Source of the DNA: Escherichia phage vB_EcoS_ULIM2
Sequence record: OQ850291
DNA length: 51,534 bases
Reading direction: 5' to 3' (one strand)
Shown: piece after piece, positions 7,884-36,252 of the stretch
Layout: each line of letters opens with the position of its first letter
Numbering within the stretch: the first letter of the stretch is position 1
Position numbers and translations under genes: made by a program
Notes under the pieces: model-generated
The model's input: the letters and a program-made list of their open reading frames with translations, nothing else
The model's database searches: none
Told to the model about the DNA's origin: nothing

Positions 7884-10800
7884 ATGATTCAAAAAGTGAT
7901 AAGCGGATCTAAAGGTGGGTCACAGAAGCCTCATAACCCAGTTGAGATGGAAGACAATCTAATCTCAATCAACAAAATCAAGATCCTGTTGGCTGTATCT
8001 GATGGTGAAATTGACGAAACATTCAACCTAAAGCAGTTGATGTTTAACTCAGTTCCGGTGCAAAACGAGGATGGATCGTTCAACTTCGAAGGGGTAAAGG
8101 CTGAATTCAGGCCGGGAACTCAGACGCAGGAATACATCAAGGGAATGGAAGATAGCTCTAGTGAGGTAACTGTAAATCGTGAGGTTACTACCGATAACCC
8201 ATACACGATCTCAGTAACCAACAAAACGCTGTCGGCAATCCGTATCAAGATGTTCATGCCTCGCGGCGTACGAATTGAAAGTAACGGTGATAAAAATGGC
8301 GTAAGAGTTGAGTATGAGGTGCAACAAGCTGTTGATGGCGGCTCGTTTGAGACGGTGCTCACCGATGTAATCGAAGGCAAAACAATGTCAGGTTACGATC
8401 GAAGCAGACGTGTAAACCTACCTAACTTCAACAATCAGGTGATATTCAGAGTGGTTCGGAAAACTCCAGACTCTAACGACTCGAACGTTGTTGACGCGAT
8501 TCAGGTAAAGAGCTATGCCGAGGTGATTGATGCTAAATTCCGTTATCCACTGACTGGTCTTCTTTTTGTCGAGTTTGATTCGAAGATGTTCCCAAACCAG
8601 TTACCTACGATCTCAATTCGTAAGCGCTGGAAGATTGTAAACGTTCCGTCAAACTATGATCCAGAATCACGAACTTATAACGGAAATTGGGATGGAACTT
8701 TTAAGAAGGCATGGACGAATAATCCGGCTTGGGTGCTTTATGACCTGATGATTAATCAGCGTTATGGACTGGATCAGAAAGAGCTTGGTATCGCTGTAGA
8801 CAAATGGGCGCTCTATGAGGCGGCGCAATATTGCGACCAGATGGTCCCTGACGGTAAAGGCGGCACTGAGCCTCGCTACCTTTGCGACGTGATAATTCAG
8901 TCACAGACTGATGCGTACAAGGTGATTCGAGATATTTGCTCAATCTTCCGTGGAATGAGCTTTTGGAATGGTGAAAGCATTTCGGTAATCATCGACAGGC
9001 CGCGTGAACCTGCGTACATCTTCACTAATGACAACGTGGTTAATGGTGACTTCTCCTACACGTTCGCAAGCGAAAAGAGCATGTACACGACGTGTAATGT
9101 GATGTTTGATGATGAACAGAACATGTATCAGCAGGACGTTGAGCCAGTATTCGATCGTGAGGCTACTCTACGGTTTGGTAACAACGTAACGAGCATTACA
9201 GCGATCGGTTGCACACGTCGAAGCGAGGCAAACCGACGCGGGAGGTGGATTCTGAAAACTAACCTCCGCAGCACTACGGTAAACTTCGCTACCGGACTTG
9301 AGGGCATGATCCCGACAATCGGAGATGTTGTGGCAATAGCTGATAATTTCTGGTCAAGTAACTTAACGATGAACCTGTCAGGGCGTTTGCTCGAAGTATC
9401 CGGTAGTCAGATTTTCCTGCCGTTCCGCGTTGATGCTCGCGCAGGTGACTTTATCATCTTAAATAAGCCCGATGGCAAGCCTGTGAAGCGCACAATCTCA
9501 AGTGTTAGTGCGGATGGTAAGACTATAGAGGTTAACATCGGCTTTGGCTTTCCTGTGAAGCCTAACACGGTATTTGCAATCGACCGTACCGACATTGCGT
9601 TGCAGCAGTACGTCGTGACCAAAATCGACAAGGGTGATGATGATGAGGAGTTTACCTACAAGATTACGGCGGTTGAGTACGATCCTAACAAGTATGATGA
9701 GATTGATTACGGAGTTAACATCGACGACCGACCGACGAGCATTGTTGAACCAAATCAGATACCTAGACCGGAAAATGTGCAAGTGTCCTCAGAGTCGAGA
9801 ATCGTTCAGGGGATGAGCGTAGAAACGATGATTGTTAGCTGGGATAAAGTGCCGTACGCAGTTTTCTATGACGTCCAGTGGCGAAAGGATAACGGCAACT
9901 GGCAAAATGTACCGCAGACGGCAAATAAAGAGGTATACGTTGAAGGTATTTACGCTGGCAACTATCAGGTTCGCGTTCGCTCTGTCGCTGGTTCCGGTAC
10001 GACTTCAGGATGGTCAAATATCGTAGCTGCGACGCTGACGGGTAAACAAGGTGAGCCGGGCCGACCGATTAACCTTACAGCTACGGATGATGTTGTTTTT
10101 GGTATCCGTACAAAATGGGGGTTCTCTGATGGTTCTGGAGATACGGCCTATACAGAGTTGCAACAGTCACCGGATGGAACAGTGGATAACGCAAGTTTGC
10201 TTTCTTTGATTCCGTACCCGCAGCATGAGTATTATCACTCACCGATGCCTGGAGGGAATATCGTGTGGTATCGGGTAAGGACGGTTGATAGGATCGGTAA
10301 CGTGTCTCAGTGGACTGATTTTGTCAGAGGTATGGCATCAACAAACGTTGACGATATCATTGGAGAGATTTCTGTCGATATCGAAAACTCGCCGGGTTAC
10401 GAGTGGCTTGTTGATAACGCAACCGACAACGCGGCGCAGAACGCAGCGAACGCAGAGGCAGCAATTGAGAACGCGCTAGCCAATGACAAAGACGCGATCT
10501 ACATGAAGAAGGAGAACGGAAAGCGAAAAGCTGAGTACACGAAATCACTTAAACTTATTGCTGATGAGACGCAGGCGCGAGTGACGTCGATCGAGCAATT
10601 GAAGGCAAGTTTTGGAGATCAGATTAGCGCGAGCAATAGTGAATTGCGCGAGGTTATCGCAACCGAGACTGAGGCACTATCTCGTGAGATTGACCAGCTT
10701 AAGGCTCAGATTGGAGACGATATTCAGGCAAGTTTAACAGATATCCGCAAGGCTATAGCAAACGAGACTGAGGCTAGAACGCAAGCTGATCTTACTTTGA

Positions 10801-21400: not shown

Positions 21401-21813
21401 TTACAGACAAAGGTGATTATTTAGAGTTTTACGAACGAGATCCTAGCGATACGAGAAAGGAGGATGCTCATCAAGTTGATTGTGTGTCTTGGCTGAAATA
21501 CAATTTCCCTCACCTTCTATTTTGGCACACAGTTAATGAAGGTGAAAAAACAATCACGTCGGCGCTCAGGGATGAGCAGGCCGGATTACTTAAAGGCGTG
21601 TCAGACTTCGTTATCCTGATTGGCGTCAACTCACGATACCCGTTTGCAGCAATCGAACTCAAGCGGGTTAATAAGTCAGGCAAAGGAAAGGCGTCACCAG
21701 TCAGCGACAAGCAAAGGGAATTTCTCCGAAAGGTCCGGGAGCGTGGCGGCTTCTCTGCCGTCGCATACGGATTCGAGCAATTCAAGATCGCAATTTACGA
21801 AATTATGAAATAG
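21397..21813 (+). CDS. VRR-NUC-like nuclease domain protein (138 aa)
   Basis: SDFVILIG ... AIELKR resembles the D..E.K core of VRR-NUC/PD-(D/E)XK domains; follows the helicase gene. Confidence 0.5.
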   Translation: MITDKGDYLEFYERDPSDTRKEDAHQVDCVSWLKYNFPHLLFWHTVNEGEKTITSALRDEQAGLLKGVSDFVILIGVNSRYPFAAIELKRVNKSGKGKASPVSDKQREFLRKVRERGGFSAVAYGFEQFKIAIYEIMK

Positions 21814-22594: not shown

Positions 22595-22842
22595 TGAGCG
22601 AAAAAATGGTTCCTGTTAAATTAACTGAGCAAGGTTTATGGCTTCTTTATCGCGCTACGTGCTGCGAAATTATGGAGCAAAACGGATTGACTCAGGATGT
22701 TATTGGTTGCGATCTGTGGGAGTTCACTATTTCTCTTGATATGTCTTTCGATGAGATAAAAAATGAATATATCGAGCGTTGGCCTTCAATTATCCAGAAA
22801 GACGTAGAGGAACTTAAAGCAGATACGATCGTACAGCACTAA
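22591..22842 (+). CDS. Hypothetical protein (83 aa)
   Basis: ATGA overlap with the methyltransferase stop; AAGGAAAG RBS. Confidence 0.5.
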   Translation: MMSEKMVPVKLTEQGLWLLYRATCCEIMEQNGLTQDVIGCDLWEFTISLDMSFDEIKNEYIERWPSIIQKDVEELKADTIVQH

Positions 22843-22876
22843 TTGCTAAAAATACCCGGCGAAAGTCGGGTATAGT
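22835..22876 (+). promoter_or_regulatory. Box-type promoter
   Basis: CAGCAC-N3-TTGCTA (22835-22848), 22 bp, TATAGT (22871-22876), leader CATCGAAACGAAATGAGGAA. Confidence 0.5.
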
Positions 22877-22908
22877 TATTTCATCGAAACGAAATGAGGA
22901 ATCAGAAG

Positions 22909-26558: not shown

Positions 26559-26601
26559 AATATACCCGATACGAGATCGGGTGTTTTAACAAAAAGTGCT
26601 A
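26559..26601 (-). promoter_or_regulatory. Box-type promoter (leftward)
   Basis: Minus strand TAGCAC-N4-TGTTA (26587-26601), 22 bp, TATATT (26559-26564) inside inverted repeat CCCGAT/ATCGGG. Confidence 0.5.
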
Positions 26602-34120: not shown

Positions 34121-34450
34121 ATGTTTACTAATATGTTTGATCCGAAGGTGATGGAAAGACGAAAACTGGAAAGTGAGAAGCAGGAAGAGAACATCAAGAA
34201 GATAGCTGATGCCGTGACTGGTAAAAAATTAATCAAAGTAAACCTTAATACCATTGGCTCAGCGTACGACGTAAGAGGTCTTGGCAAGAAAGAGGCGTCA
34301 GTGAAGGTTCTTAGGCTTATTCACGAAATTAAGAATCAGTACAAGATAACCCTAAAGATGAAAAGCCTTGAGGTTCCGCACTGTGAGCTTGTGAACATCA
34401 CGGAGCCGGAAGGGTGGGAAATAACCGACGTCGAGTTTATCGTAGAATAG
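34121..34450 (+). CDS. Hypothetical protein (110 aa)
   Basis: ATG at 34121 with AAGGAGAGG RBS. Confidence 0.5.
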   Translation: MFTNMFDPKVMERRKLESEKQEENIKKIADAVTGKKLIKVNLNTIGSAYDVRGLGKKEASVKVLRLIHEIKNQYKITLKMKSLEVPHCELVNITEPEGWEITDVEFIVE

Positions 34451-34490
34451 CACTTTTTGTTAAAACCGGATCGGGATAACCTGGTATAGT
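34448..34490 (+). promoter_or_regulatory. Box-type promoter
   Basis: TAGCAC (34448-34453), TTGTTA (34457-34462), 22 bp, TATAGT (34485-34490); perfect 8-bp inverted repeat GGGATAAC/GTTATCCC (34473-34496) around the -10. Confidence 0.55.
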
Positions 34491-34521
34491 TATCCCATCA
34501 ACAACGAATGAGGAAGCGAAG

Positions 34522-34716
34522 ATGGAAACGCAAATTGACGTAGTGGTTGTTCAGCGCGATTCAACTCACGAAAAGGGTCTGTTCAAGAAAGGAACCGAAA
34601 TCACGATCGACCTTGAGGACATGGTTGCGTATCACTCGGGTCTGACCTGGAATGTGGTGCGAGTTGGCAGCGACTACAAACTCAAAGGCTTTAACACTTA
34701 CTTTGCTGAGGCTTAA
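34522..34716 (+). CDS. Hypothetical protein (64 aa)
   Basis: ATG after leader CATCAACAACGAATGAGGAAGCGAAG. Confidence 0.5.
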   Translation: METQIDVVVVQRDSTHEKGLFKKGTEITIDLEDMVAYHSGLTWNVVRVGSDYKLKGFNTYFAEA

Positions 34717-34718
34717 TC

Positions 34719-35189
34719 ATGACGACCATTACCGTATTTCTGGCTAAAGATAATGTTGATGGCGCTATGTCATTCTTCGCGTTCGAGCATGAAGCCGGAT
34801 CGCACTGGCATATGTACACTCATTACACGGTCATCTCAATTGAGGCTTACGACGGCGATTTGCTCACTGACAAGCTGAGTAATTTTATTGATGTGGTTAA
34901 GGATAACGACGGCTGCGAATGGAAAGAAGATAACGAAGTTATGCGAATGTTTGATATGGTCAATCCGGTTCGCCTTGTATCTTTTGAGCTTGGTTCTGAT
35001 GTGACCGTTGAGGTGAGAAAGGCTGGTGAGTTATTGCCAGGAATGCGTGTGCTGACTGGTTACTCAGGTCGTAAGGTATGGCGCACTGTATCTAAGGTTC
35101 GCCAGCGTTCGGCAACTTGCTATAGCATACACTTTGAGGATGGTTGGAACGAGGTCGCCGGAAGCGGCGTGAAGTATCTCACCAAATAG
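34719..35189 (+). CDS. Hypothetical protein (156 aa)
   Basis: ATG 3 nt after the upstream stop. Confidence 0.5.
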   Translation: MTTITVFLAKDNVDGAMSFFAFEHEAGSHWHMYTHYTVISIEAYDGDLLTDKLSNFIDVVKDNDGCEWKEDNEVMRMFDMVNPVRLVSFELGSDVTVEVRKAGELLPGMRVLTGYSGRKVWRTVSKVRQRSATCYSIHFEDGWNEVAGSGVKYLTK

Positions 35190-35229
35190 CACGAATTGTT
35201 AAAACCGGATCGTGGCATCTTGATATAGT
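35187..35229 (+). promoter_or_regulatory. Box-type promoter with an unusually long leader
   Basis: TAGCAC (35187-35192), TTGTTA (35196-35201), 22 bp, TATAGT (35224-35229); about 170 nt of repeat-containing leader before the ATG at 35408. Confidence 0.5.
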
Positions 35230-35263
35230 TACTCCATCGAAACGCTTCGGGGCAAACCCAAAA

Positions 35264-35362
35264 GAAGGAAGCGGCAAACGTAGACCGGAGCCGTGCAAAC
35301 CTCGAAGCAAATTGACTTGGGAAAACCCATTAGGAAGGAAGGGGCAAACGTAGACCGGAGCC
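35264..35362 (+). repeat. Two direct repeats of about 29 bp in the leader
   Basis: GAAGGAAGCGGCAAACGTAGACCGGAGCC (35264-35292) and GAAGGAAGGGGCAAACGTAGACCGGAGCC (35334-35362); further GCAAAC copies at 35252 and 35295. Confidence 0.6.
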
Positions 35363-35407
35363 TCGTAACCCCAAGTTAAAAATGATGTACCAATCAGAGG
35401 AATCACC

Positions 35408-35671
35408 ATGTCAATCGTCAAGAACCGTAACGCAATAGAAGCAACACGCCACAACAAGCAACACGCGATATTCATTGCTCGCTACTGCTCAAACATCAAT
35501 GGTGGCGTGCAGTATCGCCGCTATGCAGTGATTGAGATTTCACCATACATTTACAAGGAGTATCTCGAAGAAAACGGTAAGTGGGTTGAGATCGAAGGTG
35601 TAACGAGCTTCTTGATCTGGAACGGTGAATTTCAGGGTTATGACGATATCAGCACTTTAATTGAGGAGTAA
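35408..35671 (+). CDS. Hypothetical protein (87 aa)
   Basis: ATG preceded by the ACCAATCAGAGGAATCA leader. Confidence 0.5.
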   Translation: MSIVKNRNAIEATRHNKQHAIFIARYCSNINGGVQYRRYAVIEISPYIYKEYLEENGKWVEIEGVTSFLIWNGEFQGYDDISTLIEE

Positions 35672-35676
35672 TAATC

Positions 35677-35904
35677 ATGCCACGTTACAGCAACCTAACT
35701 CAACTAACCCGCGTCAACGGGCACATGATTCCGGCAAAATCCACTCACTACGCAATTGGCGCAAAACACGGATTATATTTCAAGTGGCGCGGTCAATGGA
35801 ACTTCACAGCGGTGAGTAATTTCTACATGCGCGTTCCTGGCGATGACCCGCAATCGGTAGTAGAAAACTCAATCGGTGACAACAAGATCGAGGTGATGAA
35901 ATGA
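35677..35904 (+). CDS. Hypothetical protein (75 aa)
   Basis: ATG with GAGGAG RBS. Confidence 0.5.
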   Translation: MPRYSNLTQLTRVNGHMIPAKSTHYAIGAKHGLYFKWRGQWNFTAVSNFYMRVPGDDPQSVVENSIGDNKIEVMK

Positions 35905-36011: not shown

Positions 36012-36181
36012 TGCGCATTCTAATTTGCATGATGGCGGCAGTCGCCATAACTATCCTGGTTGTGTCCGGCTGCGGAGAGGTAAAAGAGCGATGTCATGAA
36101 ACCGGGAACCAGGTTACTACGTTCGTGATGGTCGGCAACGTATTGCTACCAATCACATCAAATGAAATCACTTGCGAATAG
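36008..36181 (+). CDS. Small putative lipoprotein (57 aa), not in the ORF track
   Basis: Overlaps the upstream stop; signal-like N-terminus MMRILICMMAAVAITILVVSGC with lipobox VSGC. Confidence 0.4.
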   Translation: MMRILICMMAAVAITILVVSGCGEVKERCHETGNQVTTFVMVGNVLLPITSNEITCE

Positions 36182-36221
36182 CACCTTTTGTTAAAACTCA
36201 ATTCCGGGGTTGCGATATAGT
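36179..36221 (+). promoter_or_regulatory. Box-type promoter
   Basis: TAGCAC (36179-36184), TTGTTA (36188-36193), 22 bp, TATAGT (36216-36221) within inverted repeat GGGGTT/AACCCC. Confidence 0.5.
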
Positions 36222-36252
36222 AACCCCATCGACAACGAACGAGGATACAAAC

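Follow-up and report, generated by a model that had tools for sequence, protein, structure and literature searches.

Structured RNAs of virulent phages are poorly catalogued, and each of those that are known, including put, nut/boxB, pseudo-ToxI, and the RNA anti-CRISPRs, has revealed a new route of host takeover or evasion. The put RNA is a protein-independent antiterminator of a lambdoid phage, which contacts the zinc-binding domain of the beta-prime subunit and keeps RNA polymerase from pausing and terminating. Type III antitoxin arrays consist of tandem repeats of ~34–50 nt, followed by a terminator and a toxin gene of the ToxN family. In the early mRNAs of T7 and T4, RNase III sites and 5′ hairpins serve stabilization and processing, and a tandem arrangement of sensing domains is known for glycine and other riboswitch classes. 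In its folded state, the put RNA is V-shaped: two long stem-loops lie side by side, stem I contains a triplex, and no helix closes the structure (PMC9378689).

The DNA analyzed here, referred to as the window, is the 51,534-nt sequence of Escherichia phage vB_EcoS_ULIM2 (OQ850291). A BLAST search with positions 34700–35700 returned 419 phage records, nearly all from Drexlerviridae (T1-like), and the best matches were Shigella phage phiL (92.9%) and Shfl1, indicating that this 51.5-kb window is a Tunavirus (T1-like) genome. The RNA locus, 35230–35407, sits within a block of small plus-strand ORFs of unknown function. The T1-type promoter module ahead of it (35187–35229, plus strand) comprises a palindromic box, TAGCAC-GAA-TTGTTA (35187–35201), and an extended −10 element, TGATATAGT (35221–35229), and transcription is predicted to start near 35236. 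This promoter had been proposed in a sequence-only reading of the window. The recurrence of the module (TAGCACNNNTTGTTAAAAC), with 24 copies in the window against 0.49 expected, speaks for the assignment, whereas a sigma-70 consensus scan did not call it, because the spacing from TTGTTA to TATAGT is 22 nt and not 17 nt.

Further T1-type modules are found, for example, at 21811, 34448, 36179, 38823, and 40320 on the plus strand, like the one at 35187, and at 26601, 30898, 31514, and 31931 on the minus strand. A palindromic box, TAGCA-N5-TGCTA, is centered ~41 nt 5′ of the predicted start, where a class II activator would be expected to bind; lying at about −41 and 22 nt before an often extended −10, it looks like a putative protein-binding site rather than a −35 hexamer. 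Many T1-type promoter spacers also carry a GC-rich inverted repeat, whose end lies in the T-rich −10 (e.g., cccggcgaaagtcggg, then tatagttattt), as at 22834–22880 (plus), 26601–26555 (minus), 34448–34500 (plus), and 36179–36230 (plus), suggesting that these intergenic regions may each join a terminator of the upstream gene to the next promoter.

The sequence-only reading had also described an unusually long leader containing two near-identical repeats and four GCAAAC words, and these observations were confirmed. At ~15 canonical TAGCAC copies of the module, the distance from box to start codon is 66–83 nt, whereas the box at 35187 lies 221 nt from the next ATG (35408), which amounts to ~140 nt of extra leader. 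The two 29-bp repeats, 35264–35292 (GAAGGAAGCGGCAAACGTAGACCGGAGCC) and 35334–35362, differ at 1 of 29 positions, and the GCAAAC words begin at 35252, 35274, 35295, and 35344. The 20-mer core GGCAAACGTAGACCGGAGCC has two occurrences, against 0.00 expected in 100 shuffles, and was found nowhere else in the 51.5-kb window even when 3 mismatches were allowed. A repeat finder extended the repeats to 53 nt at 77% identity and with a 70-nt period (35249–35301 and 35319–35371). The functional unit, as the following analysis shows, is a structured element of 62–63 nt (35245–35307 and 35315–35376) rather than the 29-bp core. The leader ends in a tail (35377–35407, plus strand), in which the Shine–Dalgarno sequence AGAGGAA (35396–35402) precedes the ATG at 35408; the ORF that starts there encodes 87 aa, belongs to phrog_11449, of unknown function, and has no Pfam hit. 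In the predicted fold, this tail does not pair with the element.

Each ~62-nt copy is a three-way junction, in which the closing helix P1 is followed by an A-rich strand, the hairpin P2, the dinucleotide AA, the hairpin P3, the strand GAAAA, and the return strand of P1. P3 has a 5-bp stem that starts with G-C and is capped by a nearly invariant 14-nt loop, AAACGUAGRMCGGA, and P2 is a small and variable hairpin of 2–7 bp (CC/GG, 2 bp, at its smallest). A covariance model, R1, was built from the alignment of the motif copies. Unit 1 (63 nt, 35245–35307, plus strand) scored 78.5 bits with R1 (E ~1e-22), and its minimum free energy (MFE) fold agreed with the manual parse, which was checked. In this unit, P1 pairs 35245–35252 with 35300–35307, J1/2 is 35253–35256, P2 pairs 35257–35258 with 35267–35268, J2/3 is 35269–35270, and P3 pairs 35271–35275 with 35290–35294 around the loop AAACGUAGACCGGA (35276–35289), followed by J3/1 (35295–35299). 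An A/U-rich spacer, CAAATTG (35308–35314, plus strand), was read from the sequence between the units and is unpaired in the MFE fold. Unit 2 (62 nt, 35315–35376, plus strand) scored 82.9 bits (E ~1e-24); here, P1 pairs 35315–35321 with 35370–35376, J1/2 is 35322–35325, P2 pairs 35326–35327 with 35337–35338, J2/3 is 35339–35340, and P3 pairs 35341–35345 with 35360–35364 around the loop at 35346–35359, with J3/1 at 35365–35369.

With filters off, R1 found exactly two copies over the window. A weak match at 9222–9290 (15.9 bits) was rejected as chance; it lies within a 1150-aa ORF and is without the conserved loop. Between the two window units, P1 is CUUCGGGG/CCUCGAAG in one and ACUUGGG/CCCAAGU in the other, and P3 is GCGGC/GCCGU versus GGGGC/GCCUC, with pairing kept in every case. 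The units thus differ in P1 and P3 by pairing-preserving changes, indicating that both have been under selection since the duplication.

Across the 21 copies recovered from the searches described below, the manual parse, checked against the source sequences, placed every copy in the same P1/P2/P3 architecture, and compensatory changes were found in all three stems (21 copies, ~13 phages). P1 occurs in at least eight complementary versions and P3 in five forms (GCGGC/GCCGC, GCGGU/ACCGC, GUUGC/GCAAC, GUGAU/AUCAC, and GCGUU/AACGC), and P2 was seen as CC/GG, CCCC/GGGG, CUCAC/GUGAG, CGGC/GCCG, AUCCA/UGGAU, and CCCUU/AAGGG. In 12 type-B copies, 92.7% of cells pair, compared with 29–46% when the partners are slid, 8 of the 16 pairs change on both sides, and the covariation score was reached by 0 of 500 shuffles; for 19 copies in a model-based alignment, the share of pairing cells is 91.5% and double-sided changes affect 10 pairs, although many of the 21 copies are closely related and independent covariation events are fewer than these cell counts suggest. 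Unguided RNAalifold gave the same P1, P2, and P3 helices, as did single-sequence folds. The folding energies are unremarkable (leader, z = −1.06; units, z = −1.4 and −0.85). Only the sense strand has G-U pairs, indicating that the structure belongs to the RNA.

The most conserved parts are unpaired, namely, the P3 loop, the junction AA, and GAAAA. In a loop variant, AAGCGUAGRACGUA, one pair of positions has changed from A-G to G-U. The J3/1 strands of the window copies are GCAAA and GUAAC instead of the consensus GAAAA, and copy 1 of ECO104 has two mismatches in P1; these departures suggest that some copies may be drifting. A CsrA-type GGA was rejected as a conserved feature, since it is present in type-B copies and missing from several type-A copies. 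Structure prediction and a covariation check, by which the sequence-only reading had proposed to examine the leader, therefore returned conserved helices with compensatory changes across copies. Its preference for a functional RNA over coding sequence is likewise strongly supported, given the compensatory changes in P1 and P3, the restriction of G-U pairs to the sense strand, and the unconserved lengths and frames of the ORFs.

Searches with several variants as queries recovered the 21 copies from ~13 phages and one human-gut contig. Two copies each are carried by vB_EcoS_ULIM2, Shfl1, and ECO104 4-5-2 in Tunavirus (ECO104 is an unclassified record that matches like Tunavirus), by SP-126 in Tlsvirus, by TH27 in Nouzillyvirus, by the unclassified Msk/OzMSK, by the jumbo Alcyoneusvirus phages K64-1, RCIP0023, and Muenster, and by the human-gut contig (L022). 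Single copies occur in the Webervirus phages Solomon, F20, and VAC2 and in Hafnia phage TS33 (Guernseyvirinae). Carriers therefore include four genera of Drexlerviridae, and they span phage families that share no other DNA similarity; all are phages of Enterobacterales, among which the element is sporadic. The motif family is rare, with ~13 of 50,697 phage records, three IMG/VR contigs, and one metagenome contig. An exact-pattern scan of public genome contigs gave 6 matches, all chance, in GC-rich metagenome-assembled genomes, and among the 7 matches in public metagenome contigs, that in L022 alone is real. In viral contigs, three patterns recovered only SP-126, F20, and Shfl1, plus chance matches in coding sequence. 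BLAST searches of complete E. coli genomes (two variants) and of plasmids returned no credible match.

Several carriers have further features around the element. The K64-1 and Muenster copies lie in a ~730-nt noncoding stretch with three consensus sigma-70 promoters (1340–1730 of the Muenster locus, L033), each of which is associated with a palindrome, CAGTACTG or AGTACT, as a possible operator. Behind the first of these promoters, CGAAAACC and GUAG occur in a segment that might represent a third, degenerate copy. In TS33 (636–700 of L029), a hairpin, UAGCAGG-N13-CCUGCUA, directly follows the copy, and CUUUU and a second hairpin, GCCAAC-N9-GUUGGC, come after it; TS33 is the only carrier with a terminator-like feature 3′ of the element.

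Alignment of the window with related Tunavirus genomes showed a clean 140-column gap, corresponding to an accessory insertion of 140 bp made of two 70-nt modules (35245–35384, plus strand). The window shares it with Shfl1 and ECO104 4-5-2, whereas phiL, SA30RD, and Chapo lack it. The empty Tunavirus alleles have a standard leader of ~78 nt, in which the tail that begins at ~35387 in the window, ACCAATCAGAGGAATCACCATG, directly follows the promoter. Identity between the window and Shfl1 is 97.9% over the insertion but 73–86% over the flanking genes and promoter, and phiL lacks the element, yet its downstream gene is 99.3% identical to that of the window. In Webervirus, three carriers have the filled allele, against ~280 relatives whose sequence is shorter by 73 nt; an 11-bp direct duplication, CACACCAACAA, brackets the unit of Solomon, F20, and VAC2 (480–575 of L008, compared with L039), and KPP2020, with its empty allele, has a single copy of this sequence. 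Among Tlsviruses, the filled allele occurs in SP-126 and the empty one in TLS. OzMSK has a copy of the whole promoter (~47 bp) on each side of the RNA pair (553–800 of L028).

The flanking duplications vary in length (~6, 11, and 47 bp), which points to recombination between the many similar promoters and leaders and away from a transposase. As judged from these alleles, the RNA pair is an optional 140-bp cassette, which appears to be gained and lost by recombination in a standard T1-type leader. Conservation of the repeats in relatives, which the sequence-only reading had made part of its refutation test, is thus divided: the nearest relatives (phiL, SA30RD, and Chapo) lack them, whereas distant phages keep them and show covariation. 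Other cargo is also found at this intergenic position, which is a hot spot. ADB-2 has an extra 86-aa gene with its own leader there (868–1128 of L004), and phSE-2-like Tlsviruses have, in place of the RNA pair of SP-126, ~300 bp with two small ORFs (447–870 of L041). The empty site of TLS is followed, two genes downstream, by gp05 (693–773 of L040), a 26-aa gene annotated as stp, an activator of the host PrrC anticodon nuclease, which suggests that this region deals with host defense.

The element keeps a promoter-proximal position. In all lineages and behind any type of promoter, be it the T1 type, the consensus TTGACA-N17-TATAAT of K64-1, or that of TS33, P1 starts 9–18 nt after the −10, corresponding to ~+2 to +11 of the predicted transcript, and the element always lies in the sense orientation of transcription. 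Small early genes surround the T1-like copies, and the predicted 20-kb terminal repeat of Muenster contains the Alcyoneusvirus copies. The start codon follows the element after anything from ~21 nt to >130 nt, the first downstream genes fall into six different PHROG families, all of unknown function, and a second promoter separates element and gene in OzMSK and in K64-1/Muenster. In the MFE fold, no alternative helix involves the Shine–Dalgarno sequence, which is unpaired and at least 20 nt from P1. No plus-strand intrinsic terminator was predicted in the 2.6 kb downstream. As no terminator follows the element, a separate small RNA would be expected only if the transcript were processed.

These results do not support a translational control element, one of the functions first suggested for the leader: the Shine–Dalgarno sequence takes part in no alternative helix, the spacing is variable, the downstream genes belong to six PHROG families, and second promoters intervene. 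The other two suggestions, a regulatory RNA and a protein-binding leader, may still apply. Because the genes are unrelated, no terminator or helix hiding the ribosome-binding site is present, and a promoter intervenes twice, the element is unlikely to regulate the gene behind it. Taken together, the comparisons demonstrate, at the level of sequence, a real and conserved structure of the sense-strand RNA, at the 5′ terminus of an early transcript whose start is predicted, carried as an optional tandem cassette.

We tentatively favor the view that the element acts on its own by binding a host component, with decoy or sponge action included. The conserved nucleotides lie on unpaired surfaces and the element has no tie to the downstream gene, which makes host binding the most likely way for it to act alone. 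In the proposed mechanism, host RNA polymerase would transcribe the tandem pair as the first 150 nt of the early mRNA, and the element would not regulate the gene behind it. The self-contained folded RNA would bind an enterobacterial host component early in infection, serving either as a decoy (or sponge) or as an effector of the complex that synthesizes it, and two copies would double the dose. A covarying fold in otherwise unrelated phages, at early 5′ ends and in a cassette that is gained and lost, points to a partner common to enteric bacteria. The natural filled and empty alleles, such as those of vB_EcoS_ULIM2 and phiL, make the function directly testable.

A first alternative, which we regard as possible but improbable, is a cis modifier of the put kind, in which the nascent RNA would stay on the elongation complex and suppress pausing and both intrinsic and Rho-dependent termination. 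The size of ~60–70 nt, as for putL, the start a few nucleotides from the 5′ end of the transcript, the use of host-type promoters by all carriers at this position, the independence from the downstream gene, and the lack of a phage protein common to the carriers would all fit, and the GC-rich hairpins that overlap the next promoter in T1-type intergenic regions could be the terminators concerned. However, the fold differs from that of put; over the whole HK022 genome, with filters off, the best R1 match reached 10.1 bits (E 0.88) and lay near gene Q and not at PL or PR, so a homologue of HK022 put was rejected. The 2.6 kb downstream contain no predicted plus-strand terminator, tandem copies are not a feature of put, and close relatives do well without the element.

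A tandem riboswitch aptamer, in which the units would sense a small molecule reporting the state of the host and act through the access of Rho or RNase, appears unlikely. The compact three-way junction, with invariant nucleotides in the junctions and distal loop and with stems that vary, is the usual signature of an aptamer, and the units lie in a 5′ leader, in a tandem arrangement of the kind known from glycine riboswitches. This view is weakened by the lack of a terminator or of a helix competing for the Shine–Dalgarno sequence and by the variable start-codon spacing. Moreover, the downstream genes encode unrelated small proteins, a second promoter intervenes in two lineages, and no Rfam riboswitch matched even at E ≤ 10.

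The favored reading, host binding, can be narrowed to an RNA-only device for counter-defense or host takeover, in which a compact aptamer-like fold would sequester a component of host immunity; in this specific form it is doubtful. The target would be an RNA-binding defense effector or a nucleotide immune signal, the RNA would be made in quantity from strong early promoters, and the cassette would move between unrelated virulent phages of Enterobacterales. The optional and horizontally exchanged nature of the element, its independence from any gene, its location in the early region, and its conserved unpaired nucleotides are compatible with such a device.

A 5′ module for mRNA stabilization or processing, which would protect against 5′-end-dependent RNase E or provide a processing site, is less likely still. 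The location at the extreme 5′ end, the closure by P1, the A/U-rich spacers such as CAAAUUGA that follow the units, and an effect independent of the downstream gene would be in keeping with this role. A stabilizing hairpin needs no set sequence, yet the 14-nt loop and the three junction strands hardly differ between phage families without other DNA similarity, and helices of 5–8 bp are too short for RNase III.

An element acting at the level of DNA, such as a set of regulator sites, iterons, or a miniature transposable element with the strands of P1 as terminal inverted repeats, is very improbable. The direct repeats adjoin a promoter, the insertion is polymorphic, and flanking duplications were seen in Webervirus (11 bp) and OzMSK (~47 bp). 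However, P1 varies freely while remaining paired and includes G-T pairs on one strand, which fits RNA and not an inverted repeat recognized by a protein, the orientation is always sense, the duplications range from ~6 to ~47 bp instead of having a fixed length, and there is no second genomic site. A miniature inverted-repeat transposable element was rejected for the same reasons, namely, the free covariation of P1, flanking duplications of ~6, 11, and 47 bp, a single locus in the sense orientation only, and the lack of copies in E. coli genomes and plasmids.

A small protein, whether from the Arg-rich 69-aa ORF 35144–35353 or from the minus-strand ORF annotated as Shfl1p06, is the least probable explanation, since, although both strands carry ORFs and the Shfl1, Muenster, and VAC2 records annotate coding sequences over the element, the plus-strand ORF measures 69, 38, and 43 aa and the minus-strand ORF 98, 155, and 50 aa in the window, Shfl1, and ECO104, respectively, the frames are not conserved, a 1-nt indel interrupts the spacer in ECO104, substitutions keep base pairs and not codons, and single-copy carriers could not encode the same product. 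The annotated coding sequences, Shfl1p06 (777–1007 of L002, minus strand), CPT_Muenster_010 (1408–1584 of L033), and QZE50433 of VAC2 (449–607 of L010), are thus probably misannotations. Nor is 35144–35353 the only ORF at this locus, as the sequence-only reading had it; the minus strand also contains 35179–35475 (98 aa) and 35229–35330 (33 aa), and relatives conserve none of the three.

Comparison with known RNA families gave no match. Rfam 15 returned nothing at the gathering score over the whole window, at E ≤ 10 for 35100–35500, or at E ≤ 1 for six loci with other variants, ARAGORN found no tRNA or tmRNA in the window, and a literature search retrieved no description of the motif. Similarity to ToxI was no better than chance, and local alignment to the CRISPR repeats of E. 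coli types I-E and I-F, the variants covered by this comparison, was no better than that of shuffled sequences. A ToxI-like array was rejected, given the 70-nt period, the lack of a terminator, the 87-aa ORF without a Pfam hit, and the single copy in two lineages.

Some short matches to host sequences were seen by eye. The P3 loop CGUAGGCCGGA of the copies in L007, L008, L027, L028, and L030 equals the first 10–11 nt of the enterobacterial REP element in reverse orientation, and the window loops, at 35279–35289 and 35349–35359, have one mismatch to REP (GUAGACCGGA). The matches comprise 10–11 nt of REP (GUAGGCCGGA), a 10-mer of 4.5S RNA (GGAAGGAAGC), and a stretch of the sarcin–ricin loop (GACCGGAG). 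They are nominally rare relative to shuffles, and they were treated as coincidence because they were chosen post hoc and on positions that vary within the family.

The motif is thus a new RNA family, absent from Rfam 15, and its general kind, a structured element of a phage early leader, is familiar. Like the tandem aptamers of riboswitches such as the glycine riboswitch, it places two similar three-way-junction domains in a 5′ leader, with conserved junctions and loops and covarying stems. Of the features that mark riboswitches, the covarying aptamer-like leader fold was found, and an expression platform and an association with genes of a single pathway were not; unlike riboswitches, the motif has no functional gene link and no Rfam riboswitch match, and its carriers are virulent phages only. 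Pseudo-ToxI repeats, which mimic type III antitoxins, and the RNA anti-CRISPRs, which are solitary repeat units, are, in the same way, short repeated noncoding RNAs and sporadic accessory elements of phages, which are expressed early and bind a host protein. They differ in form, being a 36-nt pseudoknot or a single repeat hairpin instead of a three-way junction of ~62 nt, and no toxin gene adjoins the motif. The 5′ stabilizer hairpins and RNase III sites of T7 and T4 share with it the character of structured elements in untranslated early phage mRNA; those elements are defined by the geometry of their helices, whereas the motif has short helices and conserved unpaired nucleotides. HK022 put (putL and putR) resembles it in being a phage RNA, in its size of ~70 nt, and in forming the extreme 5′ end of an early transcript that host RNA polymerase synthesizes. 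Unlike put, the motif is a three-way junction closed by P1, with hairpins of 2–7 bp and 5 bp, and it is tandem and optional, with no evident terminators downstream. Put acts without a phage protein and irrespective of the downstream coding sequence, and the motif could do so as well.
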